From a virus (taxonomy: Duplodnaviria > Heunggongvirae > Uroviricota > Caudoviricetes): a stretch of 32,525 bases of DNA. The stretch lies in IMG/VR virus record IMGVR_UViG_651053023_000008; one strand, 5' to 3'. Every line of letters begins with the position of its first letter. The first letter of the stretch is position 1. Of the stretch, positions 1 to 31,879 are shown one piece after another. The position numbers and the translations under genes are program-made. The notes below the pieces were generated by a model. That model saw only the letters and a list, made by a program, of their open reading frames with translations, searched no databases and was not told the DNA's origin.

Positions 1-1698
1 TTAAGGTGTGGGTTGTGCCTCTTTGGTTGAGGGTTGCGTCGTTGCTGACTTAACGGTCGGACGCGTCGCCGGAACATTGTCACACGGTTGCTCTTTCGGG
101 CAGATCAAATCCAGCATTTTCAGCGTCACGCCATTGGTCCAGCCAAAGCCATCCTGTAATGGATATTCGCCACCGCCGCCCTCCGTTCCGGTGGTGCTGA
201 CATCATATTTTTCCACCAGCTTTTTCTCCCGGTCATAGGTGTGCTGAACATTGGTCAGGAAGTGCCAGCTAATGTCCATCGCCACCTCTTTTTGCCCGTA
301 GTTTTGTAATCCTTCTGTCGCGACCCACTGTAACGGTGCCCAGCCATTTGGCGCATCCCATTGTTGCCCACTTTTCACCGACGTGGTGTTCAGGCCGCCG
401 GGTTGCAGCAGATGTGTTTTCGTCGCCGTCGCCATTTTGTTGGCGCGATCTTTCGCTGCCGCATTGACGTACAGCGGGAACAGGGCGGCCGCGGTTAACT
501 GATTGCGCACTTTATGACTTTTCAGGTCGTAATCGGCATACCAGCCTTGTTGATCGTTCCACAGGTATTTTTCGATCCCTTTTTGACGGGCATTTGCCAG
601 CGTTTCGTACTGGTTTGCCATCGCGTTATCTCCGGCAGCTTTGCTGGCGCGGGCGAGGATTTTTTCCATTTTAAACATCAGGCTGTTCAGATCGACCGGT
701 ACGATGCTGGTGGTGCGTAAGGTATTTAACTGCTGCGGGTTGTCCATCCAGCGCGAGCTGAAATCCCAGCCAGACGCAGCGGCAGAGCGCAGGTCGCGGT
801 AAATTTCAGTGGCAGGTCGATTCGGATTGCTTTTGGCGGTGGCAATATCTTCCACCCATGACTCTGGTCGTGGCGTATCGCGATCGTCCCAGTAGCGGTT
901 GAGAAGGGTACCATCCTGAAGTTTGACAACGCGTTTTTCCTGTTGTCCGGCTTGCAGGTTTTCAACACCGTCCATCCAGTAAGCATATTCTTTTTGCATT
1001 TGCGGCAGGTATTGCTTCAACGCGGCATCGCCTTCATGCTGCGCCAGTAACTCTACCATCAGGGCAAAGAAGGGCGGTTGCGAGCGGCTTAAATAGTAAC
1101 TGCGGTTGCCGTTGGGAATATGACCGTAAGTGTCTATTTCATGAGCAAAATTGGCCACCATATTCGCGACTTTATCCCAGTGACCGCTTTCGGCAAGTCC
1201 TAACATGGTGAAGTAACTGTCCCAGTAATATACCTCGCGAAAGCGTCCGCCCGGCACGACATAAGGTTCCGGCAGCGGTAACAGAGAATCCCATTTTTCG
1301 GTGTTTTCGGTAGAACGCGTTAATACCGGCCAAAGTCCGTCAATATGTTCGCGCAGTGACTGCCCCTCTGGCGGAACATATTTCTCGCCTTCTTTCGGCA
1401 GGGTGAAATTGACGTTAACGAAATGGCGCAGATCAAATCCGCTCTGGTTTTGCTGCATCCGATAATCAGCAAGGATCATCAGCGGATCGCTGTTCGGCAC
1501 GGCATCGGCAAAGGTTTTTTGGTCCGGAAAAAGTTTGGCGTTTTGCACATCATTAAACAGCGGCCCTAATAAAATATCAGGCGGCTGTGGTGTTACCGGT
1601 GTTTCTTCTGCCTGCACCGATAGCGCAGCGAAACACAAAAAGATACAGGCTGGAATTAACGCCATTTTTTGCGGGCGAGAAGGTGCGGGGGATTTCAT
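1..1698 (-). CDS. treA: periplasmic trehalase TreA (host gene)
   Basis: ORF 1..1701 (566 aa) with signal peptide ([20 protein letters not shown]) and family-37 trehalase length and sequence as I recall E. coli TreA. The first ORF codon is TTG per the sequence line; the second Met (ATG ending at 1698) is the likely start. Confidence 0.9.
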
Positions 1699-1826
1699 CA
1701 ATCATTCTCCTTTGGCGAAACCGAATAAAACGGTATTCAAGTATCAGAAAACCTTAGTTCAGGATCGCACTAGCTGCATGATCGAAATCTCATTCTGCGA
1801 ACTGTCAGGCATTTTAGAAAAGGGAA

Positions 1827-2010
1827 TGTATTGATTCACTTGAAGTACGAAAAAAACCGGGAGGACATTGGATTATTCGGGATTTGGCGGGATTAGATTT
1901 TGTGGGGCTTGCAAGCCTGTAGGACAGATTTTAGCCGTTACATCTTGAAACGCGAAAGATTGTTGGAAACAGCTTTTGATTCATTAAAGACACGAAAAGC
2001 AATTACTTCA
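1827..2010 (+). repeat. attL region with three candidate MuA end-binding sites (L1 about 1831-1853, L2 about 1944-1965, L3 about 1976-2000; approximate)
   Basis: Repeated ..TTCA..GAAG/AAAG..CGAAA(A/G) motifs (tgattcacttgaagtacgaaaaa; cttgaaacgcgaaagat; ttgattcattaaagacacgaaaag) resembling the MuA end-site consensus. Confidence 0.55.
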
Positions 2011-2165
2011 CGCATCATTTCAAGTACAGCTTCAAAAATGCTTCAAAAACGGTAACAACCAGGCTTTCAGCAAGTGATGTGTGTCAAAAATAATCATCAC
2101 TGTTTGGGTATCTTACATATGTAATTACCTGGAGTGAAGTTTATGTCTTAGCTATTACCTGGTTG

Positions 2166-2690
2166 TTATACAGCTTTCTTTACATCGTTTTCTCTTACAG
2201 GGAAATTATGTTCTTTGCCTTCATACTGAGACAAAATCTCTCTCACTTTTTCCGGTGGTAATGCCTGAAGAGTTTGCAGGGTTTTCTGTTGCTCCACAGT
2301 AATCCCTAATGCCTCTAATGCCTTATCTTTACTGACAATTGTAGGCATAAGTCCTTTAATCCCTGCTACACGAATGATCTCCACAGCTGCGGCCTGCTCA
2401 TCTGGTGTTAAGAAGCTCATTGCATAAATTAGCCTCTCATCAACTGTATGGGCGATTGATGTATGCACTGGTTTATCAGAAAGTGAGGCTCCTTTAATGG
2501 CCCTGCGTGTTTCTTCTGGCAGACTGTTGATGTGATACTCATAAGCGACACCTTTCCCACCGTGACGCTGACGTTTTACCCAATCTTCCGCCACAGCTTT
2601 CCTGGTAATGTTAGTCGCCAACTTTGGTACACCAGGCATCCCTTCCAGCTCTTTCGCATTAAACCATTCTTTGATTTCAAAAGACATCAT
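2166..2690 (-). CDS. c: Mu-type repressor (c-like)
   Basis: 174-aa ORF divergent from ner at the position of the Mu repressor. Its N-terminus ([34 protein letters not shown]) parallels the transposase N-terminus ([34 protein letters not shown]). Confidence 0.8.
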   Translation of the reverse strand: MMSFEIKEWFNAKELEGMPGVPKLATNITRKAVAEDWVKRQRHGGKGVAYEYHINSLPEETRRAIKGASLSDKPVHTSIAHTVDERLIYAMSFLTPDEQAAAVEIIRVAGIKGLMPTIVSKDKALEALGITVEQQKTLQTLQALPPEKVREILSQYEGKEHNFPVRENDVKKAV

Positions 2691-2875
2691 TTAAAATCCT
2701 AGTGATTTCAATAGAGACAAAATAAATTCATATAAAAATCATGCCGTTATATAAAATCATGGCAAATCATTTCAAATCACTATTGATTTGGAAGTGATTC
2801 CACACTACATTGCACGATATGCCGTGAGCTACTTTATAGCGTAGCTCACGGGGGAATCTGAAAGGATTACATGAA
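2691..2875. promoter_or_regulatory. operator and divergent promoter region between c and ner; candidate early promoter -35 TTGATT (2783-2788) and -10 TACATT (2806-2811)
   Basis: AT-rich intergenic region with many AAATCA/TGATTT half-site repeats; hexamers with 17-bp spacing upstream of ner. Confidence 0.5.
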
Positions 2876-3097
2876 ATGCATATGAATAAAAGAACTAACC
2901 GCCAAGATTGGCACAGAGCTGACATCGTTGCAGAGCTACGAAAACGCAATATGTCACTAGCTGAATTGGGAAGATCTAATCATCTTTCGTCTTCAACATT
3001 AAAAAATGCTTTGGATAAGAGATATCCGAAAGCGGAGAAAATCATTGCAGATGCACTGGGAATGACACCGCAAGATATTTGGCCGTCTCGATACTAG
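2876..3097 (+). CDS. ner: Ner-like DNA-binding regulator
   Basis: 73-aa ORF directly before the transposase with Ner-family motifs ([14 protein letters not shown]...LAELGR......STLKNAL...[24 protein letters not shown]). Confidence 0.85.
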
Positions 3098-3104
3098 GTG
3101 CGCT

Positions 3105-5093
3105 ATGAAAGAATGGTATACAGCAAAAGAGTTGCTCGGTTTGGCAGGTTTACCAAAGCAAGCCACTAACATTACACGTAAGGCACAAAGAGAAGGCTGG
3201 GAGTTCAGGCAGGTTGCAGGGACTAAAGGTGTATCATTTGAATTCAATATCAAATCATTCCCTGTCGCATTACGTGCTGAAATTCTGTTGCAACAAGGGA
3301 GAATTGAAACCAGTCAGGGGTATTTTGAAATCGCCCGCCCCACGCTGGAAGCCCATGATTATGATCGTGAGGCACTGTGGAGCAAATGGGATAACGCCAG
3401 CGATTCCCAGCGCAGACTTGCTGAAAAATGGTTGCCTGCGGTTCAGGCTGCAGACGAAATGCTGAACCAGGGGATTTCAACGAAAACGGCATTTGCGACC
3501 GTTGCAGGACATTACCAGGTCAGCGCATCCACTTTGCGAGACAAATATTACCAGGTACAGAAGTTTGCGAAGCCTGACTGGGCGGCTGCGCTTGTTGATG
3601 GACGTGGTGCATCCCGTCGCAACGTTCACAAAAGTGAATTTGACGAGGATGCCTGGCAGTTTCTGATTGCAGATTATCTGCGACCAGAAAAACCCGCCTT
3701 TCGCAAATGTTATGAGCGTCTGGAACTGGCAGCCCGCGAGCATGGCTGGAGTATTCCCTCCCGTGCCACGGCCTTTCGCCGGATTCAGCAACTGGACGAG
3801 GCAATGGTTGTTGCCTGCCGTGAAGGTGAACATGCACTGATGCATCTGATACCGGCACAGCAGCGAACTGTGGAACACCTGGACGCCATGCAGTGGATCA
3901 ACGGCGACGGTTATCTGCATAACGTCTTTGTACGCTGGTTTAACGGTGATGTGATCCGCCCGAAAACATGGTTCTGGCAGGATGTGAAAACCCGAAAAAT
4001 TCTGGGCTGGCGCTGCGATGTGAGCGAGAACATTGATTCAATTCGCCTCTCGTTCATGGATGTGGTGACACGCTACGGCATCCCGGAAGATTTTCACATC
4101 ACCATTGATAACACCCGTGGGGCAGCGAATAAATGGCTGACGGGGGGCGCGCCCAATCGTTACCGCTTTAAGGTGAAAGAGGACGATCCAAAGGGACTGT
4201 TTTTACTGATGGGCGCGAAAATGCACTGGACAAGCGTTGTTGCCGGTAAAGGCTGGGGCCAGGCAAAACCTGTTGAACGTGCTTTCGGTGTTGGTGGGCT
4301 TGAGGAATACGTTGATAAGCATCCGGCACTGGCTGGCGCATATACGGGGCCAAATCCGCAGGCAAAACCTGATAACTATGGCGACCGTGCTGTTGATGCA
4401 GAGCTGTTTCTGAAAACCCTTGCTGAAGGTGTGGCGATGTTCAATGCCAGAACAGGCCGTGAAACAGAAATGTGCGGGGGCAAACTCTCGTTTGATGATG
4501 TTTTCGAGCGTGAATACGCCAGAACGATTGTGCGTAAGCCAACCGAAGAACAAAAACGGATGCTGTTACTGCCTGCCGAAGCGGTGAACGTTTCACGCAA
4601 AGGCGAGTTTACGCTTAAAGTTGGCGGCTCCCTTAAAGGCGCGAAAAACGTTTATTACAACATGGCGTTAATGAATGCAGGCGTGAAAAAAGTTGTGGTC
4701 AGGTTTGATCCGCAGCAGCTACACAGCACAGTTTATTGCTACACCCTGGACGGTCGGTTTATCTGTGAAGCGGAATGTCTGGCACCTGTTGCATTTAATG
4801 ATGCTGCGGCAGGCCGTGAATATCGCCGCCGCCAGAAACAACTGAAATCTGCAACTAAAGCAGCCATTAAGGCGCAGAAACAAATGGACGCGCTGGAAGT
4901 TGCTGAACTGCTGCCGCAGATAGCCGAACCAGCAGCACCAGAATCAAGGGTTGTTGGTATTTTCCGGCCTGTGGGTAACACAGTACGGGTTAAATATCGC
5001 ACCCCCGATGATAAATACGAACCCGCTCGTGATGAATATCTGAATCAGTCACTGGATATTCTGGAACAGAAAAGACGTAAAAAAGCCATTTAA
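3105..5093 (+). CDS. A: Mu-type DDE transposase A
   Basis: 662 aa; N-terminal end and enhancer-binding domain, central catalytic core, C-terminal region, at the Mu A position; sequence closely matches MuA as I recall it. Confidence 0.95.
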
Positions 5094-5131
5094 TTAACGT
5101 TTAAACAAAATTTAATTACGAGGTTATTCAG

Positions 5132-6091
5132 ATGAATATTTCCGATATTCGCGCAGGACTGCGCACGCTTGTAGAAAATGGAGAAACCACGCTGACACGC
5201 ATCGCCAGTGAATCAGGCGTGGCCCTGAGCACAGTCAGTGGTTTTGTGAATGATAAATATAACGGCAACATGGAATCAGTCGGGCGCACACTGGAACGCT
5301 GGCTGGAAAACTATCACCGCGCAGAAGAACTGCCGGAACCCCCGCGTTTTGTGGAAACTGCAACAGCCCGTCAAATCTGGACAAGTATGCGTTTTGCTAA
5401 TCTGACCGGAACCATTGCTGTTATCTGCGGTAATCCAGGAGTGGGTAAAAGCGAAGCAGCCCGTGAATTTTGTCGCACTAATAATAATGTCTGGATGATC
5501 ACCATTGCGCCATCCCGTGCCAGTACGCTGGAATGTCTGACTGAACTTGCCGAAGAGTTGGGAATGAATAATGCACCATGTCGCAAAGGACCGCTTTCCC
5601 GTAACCTGCGTCGCCGCCTGAAAGGAACGCAGGGACTGGTCATTGTTGACGAAGCTGATCACCTTGACACCGAAGCGCTGGAAGAGCTCCGTCTGTTACA
5701 GGAGTCCGCCTGTATTGGTCTTGTTCTGATGGGGAATCACCGTGTTTATTCAAATATGACCGCTAATGGCGACAGAACAATTGAGTTTGCCCGTCTGTTT
5801 TCCCGTATTGCAAAGCGCACAGCAATTAATAAAACCAAAGAAGACGATGTAAACGCAATTGCGGATGCCTGGCAGATTACCGGGAAAAATGAACGGGAAT
5901 TATTACAGCAGATTGCACAAACGCCTGGTGCGCTCCGCATTATGAATCAAACGCTGCGCCTTGCTGTTATGAATGCCTTCGGTAAAGGCGAACGTGTTAA
6001 TGAGGATTATCTGCGTGAGGCTTACAAAGAGTTAGACCAGGACGTTGATGTTTCGATGCTGCTGGGTGTGCAAGGGGATGCTGAATCATGA
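5132..6091 (+). CDS. B: transposition ATPase and target-capture protein B
   Basis: 319 aa; Walker A motif GNPGVGKS; directly downstream of A. Confidence 0.9.
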
Positions 6092-8006: not shown

Positions 8007-8546
8007 ATGGTTGATGCAAAAGTTCTGAACGGTGTCAGTACATTATTACGGGCTTACGGACGTCTGACCTGTGGCGTTCTGGCGGAAAAAATGAATATGC
8101 CACCTTCTTCAATGGTGTATTTCCTGCGTGATGCGGTTGATGCCGGAGTTCTCACTGAATGCAACGGATTTTATGACGTTCCGCGCCCTCGTCCGACGCC
8201 GCCAGTAAGACGAAACGCAACGGAGCACCCCGCTGTTGATGATGCTCAATGGTGCGCTTTCCGCCGCTCTTTGCCCTGGCTGGAAGGCAATGCCATTCCG
8301 GCACTGGCAAAAGAATTTGCGACAGGCGTACTGACCTGCGAGTCGGTTTACATCGTTGCTGAAGTGGATGACGAGATGTGCAAACAGGGGATGCCCCGTT
8401 TTGTGATGGCGTATATCGATATCCGACTGGGACGTTTTATTTGTGGCTCCAGTGGCTGGAATATCACCGACCACGTCCTGCGCTATCTCATTCTTGATTA
8501 TTCACCGGTTCCGGCGGCAACACAGGATGTCAGCGAGCATGGTTAA
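8007..8546 (+). CDS. hypothetical early protein with N-terminal winged-helix-like region
   Basis: 179-aa ORF; N-terminal LLRAYGRLTCGVLAEKMNMPPSSMVYFLRDAVDAGVL followed by a Pro-rich linker. Confidence 0.5.
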   Translation: MVDAKVLNGVSTLLRAYGRLTCGVLAEKMNMPPSSMVYFLRDAVDAGVLTECNGFYDVPRPRPTPPVRRNATEHPAVDDAQWCAFRRSLPWLEGNAIPALAKEFATGVLTCESVYIVAEVDDEMCKQGMPRFVMAYIDIRLGRFICGSSGWNITDHVLRYLILDYSPVPAATQDVSEHG

Positions 8547-8721
8547 GTCAATTGGCTTTGTCCTGCTGGTTGGTACTTGCGGGAATGATGCCTGTGATGC
8601 CATTCCGGTAACAGAAAAAATCTGGCCCACAGAACAGGCATGTATGCAGGTGATGGAGCGCATACAAAAACGTTATCCCAGTGAAATCTTTTATTGCGAA
8701 GAGGTATTAAGAAATGAATAA
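8539..8721 (+). CDS. small putative secreted protein or lipoprotein (moron)
   Basis: ATG overlaps the upstream stop. 60 aa; N-terminal hydrophobic segment ending ..LLVGTC (lipobox-like); GC content lower than the surrounding sequence. Confidence 0.4.
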   Translation: MVKSIGFVLLVGTCGNDACDAIPVTEKIWPTEQACMQVMERIQKRYPSEIFYCEEVLRNE

Positions 8722-9103
8722 CGCAGAGAAAAATGAAATTAAATCCGCATCCGCCAGCACCAGAAAGCATCTTCATGATTTTTATGTTGCCTATAACCAG
8801 TGGTTAAAAAATGGTGTACCAGAAACAGAGGGTGAAATATTTGTTCAATATTCAGGATTATGTACAAATGCTTGTCGTTATTTTGACGAAATCGGAGTGG
8901 ATACCGAAGATATATTAGAACAATTACGTGCAGATTTTATCGCGAACGAGTTGGATGAATTATTACCTTTCAATGAAAGTGGAACGCACTATCATGAGGA
9001 ATGCAGACTTGGCAGATGTCACCTGAATTCTGCTCGTGTGGCATGGGTCGAAAAACACTGCATTAAGGAGATGGGACATAATGAGCCGCACATCCCTGAT
9101 TAA
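8714..9103 (+). CDS. hypothetical protein (AT-rich moron)
   Basis: 129-aa ORF; visibly AT-rich compared with flanking phage genes; Cys and His rich C-terminal half. Confidence 0.5.
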   Translation: MNNAEKNEIKSASASTRKHLHDFYVAYNQWLKNGVPETEGEIFVQYSGLCTNACRYFDEIGVDTEDILEQLRADFIANELDELLPFNESGTHYHEECRLGRCHLNSARVAWVEKHCIKEMGHNEPHIPD

Positions 9104-9632
9104 ATTAATTCATGTCGCCCGTCGGGAATTGCAACTTGACGATGACACTTACCGCGCCTTTCTGGTGCAGTGCACGGGCAAAACCAGTTGCCGCGAGCTG
9201 TCCGTTGCACAACTGGAACGGGTGCTCGATGCCATGAAAGAGCGCGGTTTTAAGAAGCAGAAAAAACATCCCCGCCGTCGCTTTAAGGGGCATGTCACAC
9301 CACGCGAGAAGATTTACAAAATCTGGCAGCAGATGTTTCTTGATGGTTTCGTCTCCGATATCAGCGACGCCGCGCTGGACAAATACGTTGAACGCCTGAC
9401 GGCCAGACGTAATGGCGGTCAGGGTGTTTCCACGCTGGCCTGGTGTCACGGGGAATCGTTGCAGGTTGTGCTCGAAACGCTCAAACAGTGGCACATGCGC
9501 TGCATCCGTGAAGCCTTTGCCCGACATGGTGTGCCTTTACCTGTAAGCCCATCCGGGCGGGAACTGCGCGGCTATGATGCACTGACCAGTGCATATGCCC
9601 GCGCACGAAACAGCGGGAGAATTGCTGTATGA
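9081..9632 (+). CDS. gemA: GemA-like protein (Mu gp16 family)
   Basis: Internal ATG 9081 with an AAGGAG ribosome-binding site; 183 aa; position immediately upstream of mor; N-terminal LIHVARRELQLDDDTYRAFL motif. Confidence 0.65.
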   Translation: MSRTSLIKLIHVARRELQLDDDTYRAFLVQCTGKTSCRELSVAQLERVLDAMKERGFKKQKKHPRRRFKGHVTPREKIYKIWQQMFLDGFVSDISDAALDKYVERLTARRNGGQGVSTLAWCHGESLQVVLETLKQWHMRCIREAFARHGVPLPVSPSGRELRGYDALTSAYARARNSGRIAV

Positions 9633-10078
9633 AACAGATGAAAGAGCAGGATTTGTTCGAAGACCTTCGGGACGACAGCGTTCTGGAATATCTTCATGAT
9701 TACCAGGAAAACACCGCTTATCCGGCGTTACTTTCTGAACTGAACGCACTGCTGCGTAAAGAGCTGGCCCGGATTGGCGCAGACCCTGCCCATTCCCTTG
9801 AGCTGGTTGTGGCGATTTGTCGCCATATCGGCGGGATGCAGGTTTATGTTCCGAGGGGGAATATTCTGGAGAATCTTGTCCGGGATATGCGTATCTGGCG
9901 TGATTTTAACGGCCATAATATTCCTGAACTGGTTCAGCGTTACGGGGTGACGTATAAAACCGTCTACAAGGCCATCAAACGGATGCGACGTCTGGAGCGC
10001 AATAAATACCAGCCGGATTTGTTTTACCTCTCCCCGAACCTGCCTCACCCCGTTCGTCGTCCGCCACGACGCCCTTAA
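9629..10078 (+). CDS. mor: Mor/C-family transcriptional activator
   Basis: 149 aa with a Mor-family C-terminal HTH (VYVPRG...IWRDFNG.N..EL..RYGV....VYKAIKRMRR), located at the end of the early operon and followed by a terminator. Confidence 0.8.
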   Translation: MKQMKEQDLFEDLRDDSVLEYLHDYQENTAYPALLSELNALLRKELARIGADPAHSLELVVAICRHIGGMQVYVPRGNILENLVRDMRIWRDFNGHNIPELVQRYGVTYKTVYKAIKRMRRLERNKYQPDLFYLSPNLPHPVRRPPRRP

Positions 10079-10084
10079 TCAATG

Positions 10085-10108
10085 AAGCCGGTAAATCCGG
10101 CTTTTTTT
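10085..10108 (+). terminator. rho-independent terminator after mor (stem AGCCGG, loop TAAAT, stem CCGGCT, T7)
   Basis: Perfect 6-bp stem hairpin followed by seven T, 7 nt after the mor stop. Confidence 0.7.
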
Positions 10109-10122
10109 ATGCCTCCGGCACC

Positions 10123-10752
10123 ATGAAGCAGACCACGTTTAACTCTGCTTCACAGGTGCTTTTTATGGAAAATCTAAAATTATATCTGGCCTTTGAGCGT
10201 GCGCTGAATTTTATTCTGCGTCCTGATATCGAAGGCGTCTATGTCAATGACCCCACTGACCGTGGCGGAGAAACCAGGTACGGCATCTCTGACCGCCGCG
10301 ACGGTGTGATTGACGGCAAAACTGACGTCAACGGTGATGGTAAACCCGACACCCGCATTAAGGATTTTACCCGCGAACAGGTTGCGCAGATTTACTGGCG
10401 CGATTACTGGCTGCCTGCCGGGTGTGACCAGTGGCCTGACAGAGTGGCGCTTTTTGTGTTCGATGCGGCGGTTCAGCATGGTGTTAAAAAAGCCATCAAA
10501 CTTTTGCAGGAAGCCACTGATATCAATGCCGATGGCATCATCGGCCCGCGCACCCGCAGGGCCGTGAACCTGGCTGACCAGAACTGGTTGCTGACCCGCT
10601 GTATTGTCCGTCGTTCCCGCTTTTATGCCGAAATCATCAAATCAAAACCCGCCCAGGGCAAATACCTGAACGGCTGGTTTAACCGCATGGAAAAACTGAC
10701 CGACGCCTGTCTGGAAATCATCGACAACGCGCCGTCCACCACGCGGGGGTGA
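10123..10752 (+). CDS. endolysin, GH108-like N-terminal domain plus peptidoglycan-binding C-terminal domain
   Basis: EGVYVNDPTDRGGETRYGI motif typical of glycoside hydrolase family 108; no N-terminal transmembrane segment. Alternative start at ATG 10165 (MENLKL) has a better ribosome-binding site. Confidence 0.75.
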   Translation: MKQTTFNSASQVLFMENLKLYLAFERALNFILRPDIEGVYVNDPTDRGGETRYGISDRRDGVIDGKTDVNGDGKPDTRIKDFTREQVAQIYWRDYWLPAGCDQWPDRVALFVFDAAVQHGVKKAIKLLQEATDINADGIIGPRTRRAVNLADQNWLLTRCIVRRSRFYAEIIKSKPAQGKYLNGWFNRMEKLTDACLEIIDNAPSTTRG

Positions 10753-10753
10753 T

Positions 10754-11389
10754 ATGGGCAAAGGCTGGGATGCCTCACTGAAAGCCGGGCGGCGTGACCG
10801 CCTGCGTCAGGAGGTTCTGCACCGCATGGCCGGAGGTCCGCCCCCGAAACCGCTGGACTATACCGGCCATGACGGCACACACGCCAGCTACTACATGCGT
10901 GGCTGGAACTCCGTGGATACACGGGACATTTTCTGGCAGTGCCAGAAGTACAGGGAAAAATTCAATGTGGAAAAAGGTAATGAACAAAATTTTAAACTGT
11001 GTGACTGGCTGCTTTGTTCCCGACTGATGAGAACCCCATGGCCGCTGGCCGGACTGACACTCTGCATGTTCATCATCAGCATGTTATGTGGCTGGCGATC
11101 GTTCGTGTTGATGTTGTTGTCCTTTGCCGGGGTGGTGTTGTTTTCATACAGCGCAAGCCTCGGGAATGTGCCATTTCGCCTGCTGCCTGAGGTCCGTTAC
11201 CGGGCTTTTGGTCGCCACATCATCGTGTGGTCATGGGTGGTCTGGGCGCTGGGATATTTCTGCTGCGTCTTCAGCACGCTGATGATGGTGTCACCGGTGC
11301 ATCCGGTGTTCTGGCTGTGTGGTGGCTGTTGCGGCGGTCTGCTCTGTCTTCAGCGTTATCTGTATGGAGGTTTCCCGTGGATCCGTTAA
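10754..11389 (+). CDS. putative lysis-cassette membrane protein (soluble N-terminal part plus about four predicted TM helices); holin candidate
   Basis: 211-aa ORF immediately after the endolysin; the C-terminal 120 aa are strongly hydrophobic. Confidence 0.4.
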   Translation: MGKGWDASLKAGRRDRLRQEVLHRMAGGPPPKPLDYTGHDGTHASYYMRGWNSVDTRDIFWQCQKYREKFNVEKGNEQNFKLCDWLLCSRLMRTPWPLAGLTLCMFIISMLCGWRSFVLMLLSFAGVVLFSYSASLGNVPFRLLPEVRYRAFGRHIIVWSWVVWALGYFCCVFSTLMMVSPVHPVFWLCGGCCGGLLCLQRYLYGGFPWIR

Positions 11390-11985
11390 CCCTTTCAGGC
11401 ATCGCCTCTGTTCTGCTGAAAGCCGGGCCGGGGCTGATTCGTTCCGTCGGGCGCTGGTTTGGTGGCAGTACATCTGCCGCCGCTGACTCGGTGGCCGGTA
11501 TGGTGGAAAGCGTCCGGGAAAGCCTGCCGGTGGCTGAACAGCAACGCATTCTGGAACAAAAACTGGTGATGCTGTCACCGGAGCAACTGATGCAGCTGGA
11601 AACCCTGAAAGTTCAGCTGCAACAGCTGGAGGTGGAGCGGCAGAAGCTGGTGCTGGCTGACCAGCAGGCCGCACACCACGAACAGCAGGAAACCATCCGC
11701 AATGGTGACAACGCCACGGACAGCTATGTGCGCCAGACACGCCCGCTGCTGGCCCGCCTTTCCTGTTACAGCAGTCTGGCCTATGTGCTGTTGCTCTCCT
11801 GCGGCCAGATTGCCGGAGCCATTGCCGGTGCCAGAGGTATCACGCTGCATATGCCATCACCGGACTGGGATATCACGCTGATGTTGCTTACCCCGGCGCT
11901 GGGCTATCTCGGTGTAAGAACCCTTGACGGCTTTGCCCGTTACAGCAAATCAAGCCGTCACAAAATGTCTGCGGGGCCGAAATGA
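11377..11985 (+). CDS. putative membrane protein with central coiled coil and C-terminal TM segments (lysis-associated)
   Basis: GTG 11377 preceded by a GGAGG ribosome-binding site at 11366-11370; Leu/Gln-rich heptad region; two hydrophobic segments near the C-terminus. Confidence 0.5.
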   Translation: MDPLTLSGIASVLLKAGPGLIRSVGRWFGGSTSAAADSVAGMVESVRESLPVAEQQRILEQKLVMLSPEQLMQLETLKVQLQQLEVERQKLVLADQQAAHHEQQETIRNGDNATDSYVRQTRPLLARLSCYSSLAYVLLLSCGQIAGAIAGARGITLHMPSPDWDITLMLLTPALGYLGVRTLDGFARYSKSSRHKMSAGPK

Positions 11986-12209
11986 CCGACGAAATCGATC
12001 GCATCAGTGAAGTGGTTCTGAACGAGCGTCAGAGCGTCGTTAAAGCCTGGCAGACACGGACAAAAGAAGCGCCCCACAGCCGGGGCTTCTGCAATGACTG
12101 CGGGAACGTTATTCCGGCACAGCGCCTTGCGGCGCTGCCGGATGTGGTGACCTGTATTGACTGTCAGCAGATGCGGGAACGCAGGAGGAAATCGTGTCCT
12201 GGGAAATGA
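11982..12209 (+). CDS. TraR/DksA-type C4 zinc-finger protein
   Basis: 75 aa with CNDCGN...x17...CIDC four-cysteine motif. Confidence 0.7.
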   Translation: MTDEIDRISEVVLNERQSVVKAWQTRTKEAPHSRGFCNDCGNVIPAQRLAALPDVVTCIDCQQMRERRRKSCPGK

Positions 12210-17670: not shown

Positions 17671-17812
17671 CCCTCCCGCCGTAAATCCCCCTGAAACGCA
17701 TCAGAAACGCGTTTTTTATTCTGATGGCGTGAATGTGCATTCTGACGTTTTTGAAGATGCTGTGGCGTTTTTGAAGGGGGTTTTGAAGGGGGTGTTTCCC
17801 CGTTTTCAGTGA

Positions 17813-17835
17813 AGCCGGTAAATCCGGCTTTTTTT
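17813..17835 (+). terminator. rho-independent terminator (second copy of the element found after mor)
   Basis: Stem AGCCGG 17813-17818, loop TAAAT, stem CCGGCT 17824-17829, T-run 17829-17835. Confidence 0.7.
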
Positions 17836-17884
17836 CTGCCTTCCGCATACTGACCGTCGGTAACCCCAAACGACGGAGACTGAC

Positions 17885-18847
17885 ATGCAACCGGAACTGC
17901 TGGCGCTGTGTTTTTCCCTGCCAGAACCCATCCCTGAGCTGACACCTGCTCAACTGCCGGAATGGCTTGAACTCGTCCCTGCGGGTGAGTTCACCGGGCG
18001 CGATGGCCGGACGTGGATTAACCGCAATCCGCATGAGGTGGTCACCCGCTCGTCCGACATCAAAATTCCGGTGGACATTGAACACGCCACCGAAATTAAA
18101 GGGCAACGCGGTGATGAAGCCCCGGCGTATGGCTGGGTGGAAGAACTGCGCGTGACGGACAGCGGCACCATTGAAGGCCGTGTTGTCTGGAGCGAGTACG
18201 CCCGGTGGATGCTGAGCGAACGCCGCTACCGCTATTACAGCCCGGCGTTTTTCTTTGACGCAGACGGTGTGGTGACGCGCCTGTCCAGCGTCGGGCTGAC
18301 CAACAAACCTAACCTGGACTTTCCTGCACTGAATACGGAGAAAAACCCGATGACAGTACCTGTGCAAATCACCGGCCTGCTTGGGCTGGCTGAATCTGCC
18401 ACGGTGGACGATACCGTGGCCGCCATTAAACAACTTCAGGAGAACGAACAGGTGGCGCTGAACCGCGCACAGACACCTGACCTGACGAAGTTTGTGCCGG
18501 TGGAAACCCACAATCTGGCACTGAACCGTGCCGAAACCGCAGAACAACGCCTTCAGCAACTGGAAGAGAAGGAAGCAGAAGCGCTTGTGGATGCGGCCAT
18601 CGAAGCCGGAAAAGTGGCCCCGGCAAACCGTGACATGTTCCTTGCCACCTGCCGCACGGAAGAAGGCCGCAAACAATTTGCGGAATACACCAAAGGTGCA
18701 CAGCCGCTGGTGAACAACGACAAGCCCAGCCAGGGCAAGGATAAACCCGCGCAGACACTGACCGACGCCGAACTGGCGATGTGCCACAGCATGGGTATTA
18801 CCGGGGAAGAGTTCCTCGCCGCTAAACCTAAACAGGAGAATAACTGA
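17885..18847 (+). CDS. I: head maturation protease and scaffold (Mu I family)
   Basis: 320 aa; N-terminal protease-like domain, C-terminal Ala/Glu/Gln-rich helical scaffold-like region; directly upstream of the major head gene. Confidence 0.8.
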   Translation: MQPELLALCFSLPEPIPELTPAQLPEWLELVPAGEFTGRDGRTWINRNPHEVVTRSSDIKIPVDIEHATEIKGQRGDEAPAYGWVEELRVTDSGTIEGRVVWSEYARWMLSERRYRYYSPAFFFDADGVVTRLSSVGLTNKPNLDFPALNTEKNPMTVPVQITGLLGLAESATVDDTVAAIKQLQENEQVALNRAQTPDLTKFVPVETHNLALNRAETAEQRLQQLEEKEAEALVDAAIEAGKVAPANRDMFLATCRTEEGRKQFAEYTKGAQPLVNNDKPSQGKDKPAQTLTDAELAMCHSMGITGEEFLAAKPKQENN

Positions 18848-19749
18848 TGGGAGCAGTCACTTCCGAAGTCCTTCACGCGCTGACCACCTGTCTGAGCGCC
18901 GCTTATACCCGTGGTCTGAGTGGTGTCACCCCACAATGGCAGCGCATCGCCTCTGAAATCCCGAGTTCGTCCGCTTCCAATACCTACGGCTGGATGAAAG
19001 ATTTACCGGAGATTAAGGAATGGGTCAGCGCCCGTCAGATGGCAACGCTGGACGGTTATGGTTACACCCTTGCGAACAAAACCTGGGAAAGTTCGATCCG
19101 CGTTAAACGCGAACACATTGAAGACGATCAGATTGGTCAGTACAGCATTATCGCTGAACGCTATGGCCGCCAGACGTCGGAGTTCCCGGACAAGCTGTGT
19201 TACCCCCTGCTGTGTGCCGGGTTTAACACCCTGTGTTTTGACGGTCAGAACTTCTTTGATGAAGACCACCCGCTGGGCGACGGCACCTGCAGCAACGTTG
19301 TCGGCACCCCGGCATCAGACCAGGGAGAACCGTGGTTCCTGATTGATGATTCTCAGGTACTGAAACCCATCATCTGGCAGACGCGACGCGCCTTTAAGTT
19401 TGAAGCCCTGGATGATCTGAACAGCGAGCACACCTTCAAGAATAACGAGTTCCTTTACGGGGTGGACGGTCGCTGCAATGCGGGCTTCGGCTTCTGGCAG
19501 ACCGCCGTCGGTTCCCGTGCGGCACTGACAGCGGAGAACTACGAGAAGGCCAGCAATCTGCTGCTGGGTATGAAGGCCACCAACGGTGAACCGCTGGGCA
19601 TCCGCCCGACCACCCTTGTGGTGGGGCCGAAAAACCGTGCAGCCGCGAAGCGCATCATTGACGCCATGCTGGTTAACGGCGGCGATTCCAACATCTGGTA
19701 CAAGGATGTGGACATCGTGGTCAGCCCGTTCATCACCACCCCGGCATAA
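18847..19749 (+). CDS. T: major head subunit (Mu T family)
   Basis: 300 aa, ATGA-coupled to I; matches the Mu-like major capsid protein family in length and position. Confidence 0.8.
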   Translation: MGAVTSEVLHALTTCLSAAYTRGLSGVTPQWQRIASEIPSSSASNTYGWMKDLPEIKEWVSARQMATLDGYGYTLANKTWESSIRVKREHIEDDQIGQYSIIAERYGRQTSEFPDKLCYPLLCAGFNTLCFDGQNFFDEDHPLGDGTCSNVVGTPASDQGEPWFLIDDSQVLKPIIWQTRRAFKFEALDDLNSEHTFKNNEFLYGVDGRCNAGFGFWQTAVGSRAALTAENYEKASNLLLGMKATNGEPLGIRPTTLVVGPKNRAAAKRIIDAMLVNGGDSNIWYKDVDIVVSPFITTPA

Positions 19750-19832
19750 CCCGTCATCCGTAATCTGTTGTAACCCGCAATGACTGGCTGATTAGCTGTA
19801 TCGGCACCAACCTGTCACCGCACCCGGCGTGG

Positions 19833-20426
19833 ATGTGGGCCGCGTCATACGGCGCAACGGCAGCGTATCACCTTGCCATTGACCCGGCGCGTCCGCTTCA
19901 GACGCTGGTCCTGACCGGCATTCTGCCGCCTGCGCGTAATGTTCGCTGGGATATGCCGGAACGTAACCTGCTGCTGCATGACGGCATTGCCACGCACATG
20001 GTGGACGCCGGGGATAACGTCTGCATAGAGCGTGAAATCACCATGTACCGGGTTAATCAGTACGGTGATGCGGATGTGTCGTACCTTGATGTGCAGTCAC
20101 CCGCCACGCTGGGCCGTATCCGTTACATCATCAAGAACCGTTTCACGAACCGTTATCCGCGCCACAAGCTGGCAGATGATGACGTGCTGGACTCACTGGA
20201 TGCCGGTCAGCCGGTGATGACGCCGAAGCTGTGCACCGCAGAGCTGCTGGATATCTGCCAGACCGAACTTATTCCTGCGGGCCTTGTGGAGAACTTCAGC
20301 GATTACAAGGACACGCTTCAGGTGACACGCGACAGCAGCGATAAAAACCGTCTGAACTTTATCTGTCACCCGAATCTGGTGAACCAGCTGCGTGTGCTGG
20401 CAGGCCTGATTCAGTTCAAGCTTTAA
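19833..20426 (+). CDS. hypothetical tail-region protein; possibly the C-terminal remnant of a contractile-sheath gene
   Basis: 197-aa ORF. The reading frame is open upstream to 19764 with no start codon and no ribosome-binding site before ATG 19833; it sits where the sheath gene would be in Mu. Confidence 0.4.
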   Translation: MWAASYGATAAYHLAIDPARPLQTLVLTGILPPARNVRWDMPERNLLLHDGIATHMVDAGDNVCIEREITMYRVNQYGDADVSYLDVQSPATLGRIRYIIKNRFTNRYPRHKLADDDVLDSLDAGQPVMTPKLCTAELLDICQTELIPAGLVENFSDYKDTLQVTRDSSDKNRLNFICHPNLVNQLRVLAGLIQFKL

Positions 20427-23122: not shown

Positions 23123-24396
23123 TGACAACAGGCAATGGCAAATGGGACGGGCTGCGCGACGCCTCGTTTCGCGGCGTTCCCTTCTTTCTGGTGGATACAG
23201 AAGGCACCGGTGGCCGCAGGGCTATTCCCCGTGCTTACCCCCGGCGTGAAACCGCCTGGACGGATGATAACGGGGCCGTTCCCGGTCAACAACAGATTAA
23301 CGCAAAGCTGCCAGGTAAAAACTTCCGGGATGATTTAAACGCCCTTTTAGACGCGCTCAATACCCCAGGCCCCGGCGAGCTTATCCACCCGTGGTTCGGG
23401 ATACAGACCGTACAGGTTGGCAAGGTCACTCATCGCCTCAGCACGGAGGAAGACGGCATTGCGTATGTCACCTTTGAAGTGTTTGAGGCAGGCGAGCGCC
23501 TGTTCCCGTCTGCGGCGGATAACACGCAGCAGGAAGTGCTAACGGGCATTGATGCGGTGAAAGCCGCCATTGACGATGGCGACTGGTTCGGCGCACTCGA
23601 CGGGCTGGGTGAGATGGCCGACAGCTTTCTGGCCGATATGGAAAACCTTGTGGCTAACCTGCCCACGCTACCGGCAGCACTGAATCAGTGGATGGACAGG
23701 CTGAACCATTTTAAGGAGATGGCCGGAACCATCATTGCCACGCCGGGGCGTCTGGTCAGTGAGTTGTCCTCGTTCATCGACGGCGTGGTTGATCTGGTGA
23801 CGGAACCACCCGAAGCACTCGCGGTTTACACGACATTACGCAACCAGTGGGTCGGAGAACGCGCCCGACAGGTTGCCACCGGCGCACTGCCGGAAGATAT
23901 CACCGTGAAGCCAGGCAGCGTGGCAGACGGCGAAATCGGCTTTGCCATCGGTCTGTCACCGGGTTATCAGCCGGTATCTGACAGCCTGCAAAAGAACATT
24001 GATGACTTCCGCCAGGTGGTTGTGCTGGAAACCCTGCTGGGACAGGCAAATGCCGTGGCCTCGATGACGTTCGATACCAGTGATGCGGCATTATCTGCTG
24101 GTGACACGCTGGCGGCTGAACTGCATGAGCAGGCGGTGGCGGCGGTGGAAAATAACCAGCGGGCATTATGGCGAACGCTGCGCGATTTACGGCAGGCCGT
24201 GATTACGGATGCCCGCGAGCGTGCCGCCCGTCTGCCGGAAACCCGACAGGTGACGCTGACCACAACCACATCTGCCGCATTGCTGGCATGGCGCGAACAT
24301 GGTGACACAAGCCGACGGGATGAAATCGTGCAGCGTAACCGCCTGCGCCATCCGTCATTCATCCTGCCAACGCAACCAGTGGAGATTACCGACTGA
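23122..24396 (+). CDS. P: DNA circularisation protein-like tail protein (Mu P family)
   Basis: 424 aa; N-terminal region resembles the Mu gp43 N-terminal domain; position after the tape measure. Confidence 0.65.
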   Translation: MTTGNGKWDGLRDASFRGVPFFLVDTEGTGGRRAIPRAYPRRETAWTDDNGAVPGQQQINAKLPGKNFRDDLNALLDALNTPGPGELIHPWFGIQTVQVGKVTHRLSTEEDGIAYVTFEVFEAGERLFPSAADNTQQEVLTGIDAVKAAIDDGDWFGALDGLGEMADSFLADMENLVANLPTLPAALNQWMDRLNHFKEMAGTIIATPGRLVSELSSFIDGVVDLVTEPPEALAVYTTLRNQWVGERARQVATGALPEDITVKPGSVADGEIGFAIGLSPGYQPVSDSLQKNIDDFRQVVVLETLLGQANAVASMTFDTSDAALSAGDTLAAELHEQAVAAVENNQRALWRTLRDLRQAVITDARERAARLPETRQVTLTTTTSAALLAWREHGDTSRRDEIVQRNRLRHPSFILPTQPVEITD

Positions 24397-25467
24397 TGGA
24401 ATCCGTGATTCTTACCGTTGACGGCAAATTGTGGGAAGGCTGGACGGAAATGTCCGTCAGCCGTTCCCTGAAGGCGATTGCCGGTGAGTTTGATCTCAGT
24501 GTGACAACCCGCTGGTCAGCGGCGGCACCGCGCGTGATACGTGAGGGGCAACCCTGCACGGTCAGGCTGGGTGCGGATACCGTGCTGACAGGGTATATCG
24601 ATGATTTTATCCCCAGCTATGACGCAGATAACGTGGAGATTCGCGTCATGGGGCGCGACAAAAACCGGCGACCTGGTGGACTGCTCTGTGGTGCATTCAT
24701 CCGGGAAATGGAAAGGCGTGCGGCTGGAACAGGTAGCGGCTGATGTCTGCCGCCCGTTCGGGATAGCCGTCATCACGGAAACCCCGACCGGGGAGGCGTT
24801 TGCGTCCGTTGTTCTGGAACAGGGTGAAACGGGCTTTGAACTGCTCGACCGGCTGGCAAAACAGCGCGGCGTTCTGCTGACGTCTGACGGCGCAGGTAAC
24901 CTGATTATCACCCGCGCCTCTTCCGTTCGCGCGGGCGTGTCACTGGTGCTGGGGAAAAATATCCTCGCCGCCCGTGGGCGCTTCAGCTGGCGGGAGCGTA
25001 ACAGCCAGTACATCATCAAGGGCACCACCAGTGCCGGTGGCAAACTGTGGGACAGCCAGCCTGCCTCGATGGTGGGTGGTCGCCAGTACATCACCGAAGA
25101 CCCGGAAATTAACCGTTACCGCCCGCGCATTCTGGTCAATGAAGACAGCCTGACCGTGGGCGGGGCCAGCATTCGCGGGGAATGGTACAAAGCCCGGATG
25201 CTGGGGGAATCCCGCACGACGGAAATCACGGTGGCAGGCTGGCGCGAACAGGGCGACAGCGGCCCGCTGTGGCAGACCAACCGCCTTGTCGATATCGACG
25301 ACAGCATTCAGAACCTGAAAACCACCTGGCTGATATCCGGGGTGACCTGGACGGATGGCGCACAGGGGCGGATGACGGTTCTGGCGCTGGTTCCGCCTGA
25401 ATCACTGGATATGCCGGAAATGAAAGCGAAGACGAAGAAAACAAAGGCGGTGGCCACATGGGATTAA
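24396..25467 (+). pseudogene. baseplate hub protein (Mu Q-like) with a +1 frameshift in an A5 run (24660-24664)
   Basis: ORFs 24396..24743 and 24601..25467 join into one 357-aa product (..VMGRDKTGDLVDCSVV..) if one A is removed. Confidence 0.6.
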
Positions 25468-25994
25468 ACGCAATTGCCCGCCGTCTGCGGCTGCTGGTTG
25501 ACCGTGCCGTTGTGCGCATGGTGTCTGACAGTCTGGAGCGGCAGAACCTGCAAATCCAGACGCTGGCTGATGCCACCGACGACGACGTGGAACGCTTCCA
25601 GAACTACGGGTTTACTTCCGTTCCGCCGGAAGGTTCTGAAGCCATCGTGCTGGCCGTGGGCGGACGGCGTGACGGGCTGGTTGCCATCGCGGTGGAGGAC
25701 AAGCGATGTCGCCCGAAAGGCCTGTCCCCCGGTGATGTCCGGCTGTATCACCAGGACGGTAAATCGCATATCACGTTAAAGAAAGGCGGAATTATTGAAA
25801 TCACAGGAGAACAATTAAACGTTTCAGGGAAAACGGTAAATCTCACCGCCGACGAATTGCTGAATATTATCGGTAAACAAATGAAATTCGTCGGTCCCTG
25901 TGAATTTACTGCAGATGCCACAATCAACGGTAAATCTTTCATCAAACACATTCATAAGGACGGCGACAATGAGAAGACATCACCGCCCATATGA
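25458..25994 (+). CDS. baseplate spike protein (gpV-like)
   Basis: 178 aa, overlapping the end of the Q-like gene; position in baseplate cluster. Confidence 0.55.
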   Translation: MGLNAIARRLRLLVDRAVVRMVSDSLERQNLQIQTLADATDDDVERFQNYGFTSVPPEGSEAIVLAVGGRRDGLVAIAVEDKRCRPKGLSPGDVRLYHQDGKSHITLKKGGIIEITGEQLNVSGKTVNLTADELLNIIGKQMKFVGPCEFTADATINGKSFIKHIHKDGDNEKTSPPI

Positions 25995-28082: not shown

Positions 28083-28970
28083 ATGTTTCATGTGGATAAT
28101 CCGACGGGTGTGCCAGTGATGCCACCTGTCGCGGCTGAATTAAGCAAAACAACGCTTTATTTTACCGAAGGCGGGAACGGTATTCCGCCCACTTATCCGG
28201 GGCCGGACTGGTTTAATATTATTCAGTCTGAACTGCTGGAAATTCTCCGGCAGGCAAATATCAAACCGGATAAAAACACAACCGACCAGATTATGACAGC
28301 GCTGAAAAAAACTGTTTATTACGAACAGTGGTTCAGCCGGAGCTATTGCCGGATTAACCGGTCAGAATAATACGTTCCCGTATTTTACGGCGAAGACACA
28401 ATGGCATTAACGCCGCTCAGTGCTTTTGTGCGCGGTATTCTCGGGAAAAACACAGCCGGTGAAATTATCGACGCGCTTTTATTACGTGACACGGTAAATA
28501 AAGCTAATAGTGCTGTACCGAATACCCGCAGGGTCAACGGCATGGCTCTGTCTTCGGATATCACCATCAGCAACATCAGCGGCAACGCCGGAACGGCAAC
28601 CCGACTTCAGACGGCCCGCAGGATTAACAATGTGCTGTTTGATGGCAGCCGCGATATCACGATTTCTGCGGGAATGTCACAAACTGAAGGTGACAACCGT
28701 TACCAGCAAAAAAACACGGCGTCAAAAGCCGGTAATGGCTGGTTTAAGGACACGTCCACCGGGGTGATTATTCAGTGGGGGTATCTCGGCAATGCCAGTG
28801 CCGGGCTGACGTTTCCGATATCATTTCCGTCAGCATGTACCAGCATCACTATTACCAACGCATACACCCGTGCTGATTACTCTATTTCCCTGAAATCGTT
28901 ATCAGCAGCAGGTGCGACATTCAACAGCGAGAATAACGGCGTTATGTACTGGACAGCGATAGGGTATTAA
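28083..28970 (+). pseudogene. tail fibre gene (S-like) interrupted by two compensating indels (extra A in the A7 run 28305-28311; likely missing G at 28389-28390)
   Basis: Conserved fibre N-terminus (MFHVDNPTGVPVMPPVAAELSKTTLYFTEGGNGIPP). The fibre motif GLTGQNNTFPYFT is encoded in frame +1 between the two ORFs; the C-terminal ORF 28401..28970 continues with MALTPLSAFVRGILGK. Confidence 0.55.
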
Positions 28971-31570: not shown

Positions 31571-31693
31571 ATAATCATTTTGTATAGTTTATGACGATCG
31601 ATAACATCATATCGATCGTCGGTTTGCATCATATGTGATTAAATACCCCCAGCCCTCCGGGCGGTCATGTCTGGTTATTACACAGGGGGAATC
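31571..31693 (+). promoter_or_regulatory. com and mom promoter region with Dam GATC sites (31596-31599, 31614-31617) inside 7-bp inverted repeats
   Basis: GATCGAT ... ATCGATC arrangement directly upstream of com, consistent with the methylation-sensitive upstream region of the Mu mom operon. Confidence 0.55.
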
Positions 31694-31879
31694 ATGGACT
31701 CTGTTCGCTGTAAAAACTGCAATAAATTACTGTTTAAAGGAGGTTTTAAGCATATAGAAATTAAATGCCCTCGCTGTAAACGTTACATTGTCATATCGAA
31801 TGCCAAAGAGCATCCCACGGAGCTGTATTGTGGGAAAAGAGAAGAAATCACGCATTCTGACAAAACCCTGCGTTATTGA
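31694..31879 (+). CDS. com: Com zinc-finger translational activator of mom
   Basis: 61 aa from ATG 31694 (AGGGGGA ribosome-binding site); CKNC...x16...CPRC zinc finger; overlaps the mom start. Confidence 0.85.

Follow-up and report, generated by a model that had tools for sequence, protein, structure and literature searches.

The 32,525-nucleotide (nt) stretch of DNA analyzed here (IMG/VR record IMGVR_UViG_651053023_000008, hereafter the window) is a Mu-like prophage in Escherichia coli, and the subject of this analysis is its Mor-family transcription activator gene, together with the promoters at which the activator is predicted to work. Bases 1-1827 are the treA region (99.9% identity), the left end of the prophage adjoins treA at ~1828, and the window runs on to within mom; only the last bases of mom and the prophage right end are absent, so nearly the whole prophage is covered. 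The activator gene (9629-10078, plus strand) encodes 149 amino acids (aa), and its ATG overlaps the stop codon of gemA (ATGA at 9629-9632), the same arrangement as in Mu, where gemA occupies 8233-8784 and mor 8781-9170. The GemA (Mu gp16) homologue begins at 9036 or 9081 and ends at 9632 on the plus strand (Pfam GemA, E 1e-32; 82% identity to Mu GemA over 9081-9626 by tblastn), and the gene that follows mor encodes a GH108 endolysin with a peptidoglycan-binding domain (10165-10752, plus strand; Pfam Glyco_hydro_108, E 7e-23, and PG_binding_3, E 2.5e-17). With GemA, Mor and then the endolysin, the locus is as described by the original prediction, which was made from the sequence alone and held that no C gene lies between mor and the lysis gene. 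Its account of Mu, in which Mor activates the promoter Pm, Pm leads to C and C activates the late promoters, is likewise correct according to the Mu record and the literature.

The 149-aa protein matched the Pfam Mor profile (PF08765) with an E value of 3.6e-30 and 104.6 bits against a cut-off of 24.9, over profile positions 3-107 of 107, which cover the dimerisation and helix-turn-helix (HTH) domains, and it shares 99% identity with a cluster comprising 118 sequences from E. coli. Aligned with both Mu activators, it proved to be of the Mor type, with 63% identity to Mu Mor (176 bits; aa 7-132 against 3-129) and 32% identity to Mu C (64 bits). Within the family alignment (A1), residues G68, G69, Q71, Y73, P75 and G77 of the beta-strand linker GGxQxYxPxG do not vary, and conservation extends to the HTH block VTYKTVYKAIKRMRR; the roles of linker and HTH in DNA binding by Mu C and Mor have been described (PMC2582627 and a 2025 cryo-electron microscopy preprint). 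Judged by its sequence, its position at the end of the early operon and the Pm-type operator described below, the window gene is the orthologue of Mu mor rather than of Mu C. The two ends of the protein differ in their likeness to the Mu activators. MuC requires two beta-clamp-binding motifs, QHDLF and QPDLF, and Mu Mor has only an N-terminal DLF, the consensus being Qx[DE][LM]F for the N-terminal motif and QPDLF for the C-terminal one (PMC12867686). In the window protein the N-terminal sequence is EQDLF, of which only DLF fits the consensus, as in Mu Mor; at aa 128-132 (codons at 10010-10024, plus strand), it carries QPDLF, identical in alignment A1 to the C-terminal clamp motif of MuC, where Mu Mor stops in QPSLL. 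By the aligned sequences, the activator resembles the late activator C in this clamp-binding motif. A Pro/Arg-rich tail of 17 aa (aa 133-149, YLSPNLPHPVRRPPRRP; 10025-10075, plus strand) follows directly after QPDLF. The tail had been called unusual, and it is real and lineage-specific, being confined to the E. coli and Salmonella versions of the protein (146-151 aa), in which its length is kept and its sequence varies, while the versions of other genera measure 127-136 aa; beyond this lineage specificity there is nothing unusual about it.

In the search for a second Mor/C homologue, all stop-to-stop segments of 25 aa or more in the six frames were compared with three queries (the window protein and the two Mu activators, Mor and C; phmmer, hmmsearch) and with a small profile built from them. 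The sole match in the 32.5-kb window was the segment 9578-10075 and the next had E>1, which upholds the claim that the prophage carries a single activator of this family. Six-frame searches likewise found no second homologue in the sister prophage of E. coli STEC388 used for comparison (complete, including com-mom; 96-97% identical across the mor region), in the complete 33-kb genome of Klebsiella phage Kp4866-3, or in any of 10 loci from Pluralibacter, Raoultella, Klebsiella, Serratia, Kluyvera and Brenneria. The Mor proteins of these 10 loci are 66-71% identical to that of the window and so nearer to it than Mu Mor is. In the phage collection, two Mor/C places were held by 14 of the 50 matching records; among the 40 matches listed, all 11 two-place records belong to the Mu/D108/SfMu/Yersinia YpM group, and every listed record from outside this group has one place. 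Searches with Mu proteins (tblastn) found no remnant of C, gp19 or gp20 in the window. The order of mor followed by lysis genes without C is conserved, the mor-lys region being present in 55 complete E. coli genomes and the region of the second predicted promoter, S2, in 45.

The endolysin had been thought to follow mor within about 45 bp, as it would from ATG 10123; this distance probably does not hold, and the gap more likely measures ~78-87 bp and contains a complete promoter/terminator module, designated S1. When placed in the register of Mu, S1 has, on the plus strand, the sequence AATGA-AGCCGG-TAAAT (10081-10096) as the predicted 16-bp element for Mor binding; a T7 tract and a G+C-rich spacer separate it from the -10-like hexamer CACCAT (10119-10124), whose distance from the operator equals that of TATCCT in Mu Pm. 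An 8-bp hairpin with the T7 run, resembling an intrinsic terminator, lies inside the promoter (10084-10108, plus strand; RNA fold -12.6 kcal/mol, z -3.8; terminator scan). Comparison of Mu Pm (CAGTAAAGCCGGTTAATCCGGCTTTTTTTACGTCCTCAATATCCT) with S1 (CAATGAAGCCGGTAAATCCGGCTTTTTTTATGCCTCCGGCACCAT) showed homology along the full length of the site. In Mu, the Mor site in Pm comprises two 5-bp inverted repeats flanking a G/C-rich hexamer and centred at -43.5, with GTAAA at -57 to -53 (PMC4390567), a register that places the Mu site AGTAA-AGCCGG-TTAAT at -51 to -36 and TATCCT at -13 to -8; binding of Mor to this element and Mor-dependent activation of Pm are experimentally established (PMC4390567, PMC4287176). 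The Mu record annotates a terminator inside Pm, and the hairpin of S1 is likewise embedded in its promoter. S1 and the window activator thus share with Mu Pm and Mor the gene position, the type of 16-bp element (5-bp half-sites around AGCCGG), the terminator-like hairpin, the T-tract, the G+C-rich spacer and the distance to the -10 hexamer; the half-sites differ, with left half-site AGTAA and loop TTAAT in Mu Pm versus ANKGA and TAAAT in the window. Transcription from S1 is predicted to start near 10132. The endolysin itself likely starts at ATG 10165 (with AGGTG upstream at 10154-10158) or at GTG 10156 (as annotated by PGAP in STEC388), and ATG 10123 is probably not the start, as it lies inside the conserved -10-like hexamer; relatives have CACTATG or CAAAATG at this position, and their gene begins further 3' after an AGGTG-type ribosome-binding site.

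A second site of the same kind, S2, lies in a 214-bp gap 5' of the head protease/scaffold gene (the Mu I homologue; 17885-18847, plus strand; tblastn with Mu I; annotated as a phage protease in relatives), whose ATG at 17885 makes it the first gene 3' of the site. S2 contains the element AGTGA-AGCCGG-TAAAT (17808-17823; nhmmer E 7e-17), a terminator-like hairpin with a T7 run (17811-17835; -12.8 kcal/mol) and the -10-like hexamer CATACT (17846-17851), all on the plus strand and with the hexamer at the same distance from the operator as at S1. The exact 19-mer AAGCCGGTAAATCCGGCTT occurs in the window only at 10085 and 17812, and 0 occurrences were expected by chance. From their architecture, 10081-10124 and 17808-17851 are predicted to be Mor sites, and transcription from S2 is predicted to start near 17859. 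S2 is also related to a second Mu promoter, in that its core CCGCATACTGAC aligns with Mu PI CCGCAAACTGAC; in a MAFFT alignment (A2), the C-dependent PI of Mu runs colinear with S2 from seven phages, every sequence keeps the -10 block A.ACTG, and the PI C box GCATAACCCC stands where the S2 sites have GGTAAATCCGG. By this alignment, S2 and PI have an orthologous core promoter and different operators. Simple loss of C would not yield such a promoter, in which a Mor-type operator replaces the C box. Furthermore, neither Mor nor C activates the promoters of the other in Mu (PMC4287176), and Mor-type operators at late positions are therefore meaningful.

Both sites are conserved beyond E. coli. S1 was present in 10 of 10 loci of the other genera, 340-540 nt 3' of mor, and S2 in seven of these and in Kp4866-3, 7.6-8.7 kb beyond S1 and 5' of the I-like gene. 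Each of the 20 aligned sites has a hexamer of the form NANNNT, whose offset is nearly fixed (within 1 nt); at the S2 sites, the hexamer [CG]A[CT]ACT persists and its spacing varies by no more than 1 nt, although the spacer between T-tract and hexamer diverges freely. The loop pentamer is identical at both sites in every phage compared, reading TAAAT in the window, STEC388 and the loci L004, L005 and L010, and TTAAT in L006, L008, L011 and L013; this concordance is no more than suggestive, the lineages not all being independent. Inspection by eye of the Mor translations of the related loci and of alignment A1 revealed no difference in HTH residues between phages with TAAAT and TTAAT loops, and so the identical loops at both sites of a phage may reflect homogenisation as much as selection. 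Symmetric substitutions in the stem (AAaCCGG..CCGGtTT in L004 and AAGgCGG..CCGcCTT in L013) indicate that the hairpin, and hence termination, is under selection as well.

Between mor and S1, each of the 10 loci of other genera carries one small gene, whose product is a membrane protein (~107 aa) or a secreted one with a signal peptide (~165 aa) (for example L004 7768-8283 and L006 10390-10710). The slot resembles an interchangeable cargo (moron) site and is empty in the E. coli lineage. The Pro/Arg tail of the E. coli protein was considered as a deletion scar of this small gene and the idea was rejected, as there is no DNA similarity beyond 10 nt beside the operator.

An nhmmer profile of the 20 sites gave only S1 (E 5e-17) and S2 (E 7e-17) as significant matches in the window, and only S1 and S2 in STEC388 and Kp4866-3; Mu itself has the Mor element only at Pm. 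Two weaker matches were discounted as Mor sites. The match at 28348-28362 (E 0.013) comprises the dyad core only and falls within the coding sequence of a tail fibre, that at 25822-25842 (E 0.065) within a baseplate gene; both are probably chance, about two such 1-mismatch dyads being expected by chance in the mismatch scans. The first of these (GCCGGATTAACCGGT, minus strand) matches the Mu Pm dyad at 14 of 15 positions and is followed by TATTTT at roughly promoter spacing. A C-box pattern (TTAT-N5-6-ATAA / CCATAACCCC, ~31 bp 5' of the -10 hexamer), which recovers Plys, PI and PP in Mu, gave no match at a promoter position in the window: the pattern matched only inside the mom coding sequence, and TTAT-N5-6-ATAA occurred only in the early region, at 6239 and 6582. 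A consensus scan for sigma-70 promoters with -35 and -10 elements found none near the lysis or head genes.

The genes behind S1 differ from those behind Pm. In Mu, the target promoter of Mor drives the middle operon encoding C; its window counterpart precedes the endolysin and a gp18 homologue, without C. The GH108/PG_binding_3 endolysin is a different lysis module from the signal-anchor-release (SAR) endolysin of Mu. The gp18 homologue (10754-10969, plus strand; 69% identity over all 72 aa by tblastn) sits 3' of the endolysin in the same operon, whereas gp18 is the first gene of the middle operon in Mu, and it forms the N-terminal part of open reading frame (ORF) 10754-11389 (211 aa), in which it is fused to a multi-pass membrane segment. 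The STEC388 counterpart of this ORF consists of two overlapping ORFs of 83 and 136 aa, the difference being a 1-nt indel. A gene of the Mu middle operon is thus placed in the lysis cassette of the window lineage. Further along the lysis/late operon, at 11982-12209, lies a TraR/DksA C4 zinc-finger gene (Pfam E 7e-11), and the Mu proteins gp13 to Mom gave no tblastn match to this ORF. TraR/DksA-family proteins act on RNA polymerase, and the protein is a possible extra layer of late regulation.

Two sequence features accompany the predicted promoters. An inverted repeat lies directly 3' of each (10126-10152 and 17854-17876; CTGTCCGTC...GACGGACAG in relatives), with a left arm that begins within the -10 hexamer or immediately 3' of it and a right arm abutting the ribosome-binding site, and Mu PI carries a similar repeat (CTGCTCA..TGAGCAG). 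Speculatively, read-through RNA could fold and mask translation, and RNA started at the promoter, without the left arm, could not. The gap 5' of S2 (17671-17807) contains a hairpin (CATCAGAA..TTCTGATG) and tandem TTTTGAAG(G) motifs, and it matches the position of the central gyrase cut site between G and I in the Mu record.

At the other end of the prophage lie com (31694-31879, plus strand; Pfam Zn_ribbon_Com) and mom, which starts at ~31788 or ~31830 on the plus strand and runs off the window end at 32525 (Pfam Mom, E 1e-75; 97% identical to Mu Mom). The region upstream of both (31590-31693, plus strand) keeps the GATC cluster (Dam/OxyR-type) of Mu Pmom, and it has a conserved element peculiar to the family, GTGATTAAATACCCCCAGCCCTCCGGGC, in place of the C box; the com upstream module of the window lineage reads GTGATTAAATACCCCC and then the dyad GCCCTCCGGGC. 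Neither a Mor element nor a C box, each tried with its spacing to candidate -10 hexamers, could be placed in this region in a consistent register. Near-identical mom genes (97-100% aa identity) in IMG/VR loci L014-L051 stand behind two alternative com/promoter modules, a Mu-type Pmom with a C box and the window type with the GATC cluster, GTGATTAAATACCCCC and the GCCCTCCGGGC dyad; one locus (L035) shows a compensatory change, GCCCTCAGGGC, and the recombination boundary appears to fall within com.

The early part of the prophage has the repressor, ner, A and B genes at ~2166-6091 and a gp11 homologue (87% nt identity to Mu) 3' of A/B and 5' of the GemA homologue. The left end and immunity region (1-5004; repressor, ner and the N-terminal part of the transposase) is unrelated in DNA to its STEC388 counterpart, to which the prophage is elsewhere 92-97% identical, and the insertion sites differ, with treA as the neighbour in the window and a position inside yihF/DUF945 in STEC388; these differences are the mosaicism expected of transposable phages. 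An Rfam scan of the entire window found no known RNA families. The prophage is damaged. Relative to STEC388, ~2.95 kb are missing just 3' of the major head gene (window 19749-19833, junction near 19763), which in STEC388 carry genes for the connector and virion morphogenesis, along with the part of the tail sheath gene that encodes its N-terminal ~280 aa; the residual C-terminus of the sheath remains at 19833-20426 (Pfam Phage_sheath_1 positions 103-168 and sheath_1C). With connector genes and sheath N-terminus lost, this prophage is unable to form particles. In the baseplate hub gene (Mu P/gp44 homologue), a frameshift or sequencing error has left two overlapping ORFs (24396-24743 and 24601-25467) that lie in different frames and are matched by Mu P aa 1-89 and aa 75-342, respectively, and a gene in the tail-fibre region is split (28083-28370 and 28401-28970) at the GCCGGATTAACCGGT dyad, where STEC388 has a single ORF of 270 aa. 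The prophage is defective, but for reasons other than the missing C.

The reading best supported by the observed gene content, operator copies, conservation and spacing, at a probability of roughly 0.78, is a two-tier cascade in which a single Mor orthologue would directly activate the lysis and head operons and C was never part of the lineage; binding, activation, start sites and operon extents are predictions from sequence. The lytic cascade would run from early to late in place of the early, middle and late phases of Mu. The activator, encoded directly behind gemA at the close of the early operon, would be produced with the early transcript, would bind A(A/G)TGA-AGCCGG-TAAAT at S1, after its own gene, and at S2, before the head protease gene, and would recruit sigma-70 RNA polymerase to promoters with a -10-like hexamer and no -35 element, as Mor does at Mu Pm. 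S1 would then drive the endolysin, the gp18-like gene, the lysis/TraR/gp25/gp26 genes, terminase, portal and the F homologue, and S2 the head genes and probably the tail genes. The embedded hairpin and T-run terminators would stop transcripts arriving from upstream, transcription restarting only with the activator, and the operons would in this way be insulated from read-through. C would be absent since the lineage has no middle step, and not through recent loss. The original prediction had offered one activator for all late promoters as one of two possibilities; this is supported for the lysis and head operons, which have the same Mor operator and a -10-like hexamer at the Mu spacing; the scans found no Mor-type site ahead of mom and no separate tail promoter.

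Several points weigh against the two-tier cascade. Profile and mismatch scans found no Mor-type site before the baseplate and tail genes, where Mu has PP, or before com-mom, and control of the tail genes by the single activator depends on an assumed single long operon from S2. The left half-site ANKGA differs from Mu AGTAA at one conserved position, CACCAT is a weak -10-like hexamer, and in three of the 10 loci (L007, L009 and L012) a second site was not found at up to 4 mismatches. Selection for nothing more than termination could account for the hairpin with its T-run and for the symmetric changes in the stem. It should be noted that, for the window phage, activation of the promoters by the 149-aa protein is what we infer from sequence.

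The gap at com-mom gives most room to an alternative with a hidden further tier, in which the lysis and head operons are under the Mor orthologue but com-mom, and perhaps the tail genes, require a second regulator that is not of the Mor/C family. The conserved, family-specific element upstream of com fits neither the Mor nor the C consensus, no Mor-type element stands 5' of com or within the N/P region, and the TraR/DksA-type zinc-finger gene lies within the S1 operon. However, no candidate DNA-binding regulator was identified; the tail genes of STEC388 continue the head genes without an obvious gap (one hairpin follows the major head gene), which makes co-transcription from S2 plausible; and the TAAAT core of the com upstream element resembles the Mor right half-site. 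A hidden tier is considered unlikely, though it carries the most weight among the alternatives.

A different alternative is that S1 and S2 are only intrinsic terminators sharing a hairpin, with the late promoters and their activator elsewhere (for example the TraR/DksA-like product of 11982-12209 or a host factor) and the Mor homologue acting on another target. Both sites fold into an 8-bp hairpin followed by U7, the substitutions in L004 and L013 preserve the stem, and the Mor element, as it is defined in Mu (PMC4390567), does not include the right arm of the stem. A terminator, however, needs neither the loop TWAAT nor the 5-nt left flank ANKGA, and both are conserved and coincide with the mapped Mor half-sites of Mu; the -10-like hexamer keeps its distance despite the diverging spacer; and Pm, the proven Mor-dependent promoter to which S1 is homologous, also overlaps a predicted terminator. 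No consensus sigma-70 promoter was found near the lysis or head genes, and termination and activation can coexist, the two-tier cascade itself including termination, so that this alternative is judged improbable. The second possibility of the original prediction, that C was deleted from a Mu-type ancestor, leaving late promoters orphaned and late expression defective for that reason, is largely refuted and highly improbable: although Mu carries C between mor and lys, the window prophage is degraded elsewhere, and gp11 and Mom are so near to Mu that exchange with Mu-type phages has occurred, the C-less arrangement is kept in 45-55 E. coli genomes, 10 loci of six other genera and the complete phage Kp4866-3, the PI-orthologous promoter has a Mor-type operator and C boxes are lacking at promoter positions, and tblastn found no remnant of C, gp19 or gp20, whereas an intact gp18 stands 3' of lys.

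Under the two-tier cascade, the Pm-type promoter that occurs once in Mu, where it drives gp18-gp19-gp20-C, occurs twice in the window, where it would drive the lysis and head operons directly. In its predicted role the window activator would share with Mu C the activation of morphogenesis and lysis operons at promoters without a -35 element, and it shares with C a site centre near -43.5, an orthologous PI core promoter and the identical C-terminal QPDLF. It differs from C in overall sequence (32% identity), in operators that are not TTAT-N5-6-ATAA / CCATAACCCC boxes, and in having two sites versus four in Mu; and, unlike the three-phase cascade of Mu, the window has neither two paralogous Mor/C activators nor C boxes at late promoters. 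Its protein also continues from QPDLF into the 17-aa Pro/Arg tail, where Mu Mor ends. Other phages likewise have one family member per genome, including BcepMu (gp01), SuMu (Mor), the Mu-like phages of Vibrio, Pasteurella and Shewanella, and Klebsiella phage Kp4866-3, and the gene list of SuMu gives gp16, Mor and a peptidoglycan-recognition (lysis) protein in the same order as the window (PMC3447690). A single Mor/C activator is the usual layout for Mu relatives outside the Mu group, and because such activators are the rule there, the finding in the window would not surprise specialists. Most of these single-activator relatives are only 30-39% identical to the window protein, whereas the window lineage is near enough to Mu for orthology to be traced promoter by promoter. 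To our knowledge, the operators of other single-activator Mu-like phages have not been described.

More tentatively, and at somewhat less than even odds, the E. coli/Enterobacterales lineage may have kept an ancestral two-tier Mu programme, in which a Mor-type activator with a C-type QPDLF fires terminator-embedded late promoters; the middle phase of Mu would then have arisen later, through duplication of mor into C and re-tooling of operators at orthologous cores such as PI, with mom under a different operator-regulator pair. For annotation, the analysis means that ATG 10123 should not be taken as the endolysin start and that Mor-family genes in Mu-like prophages are not to be presumed middle regulators, and the missing C gene of the window prophage is no lesion. 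The predicted single activator joins Mor-like DNA specificity with a C-type clamp-binding motif, and the lineage offers a close natural comparison for the Mu cascade, with a PI core that has a Mor-type operator here and a C-type operator in Mu. This comparison bears on how activator and operator diverged after duplication, and on the value for timing of the middle tier of Mu.

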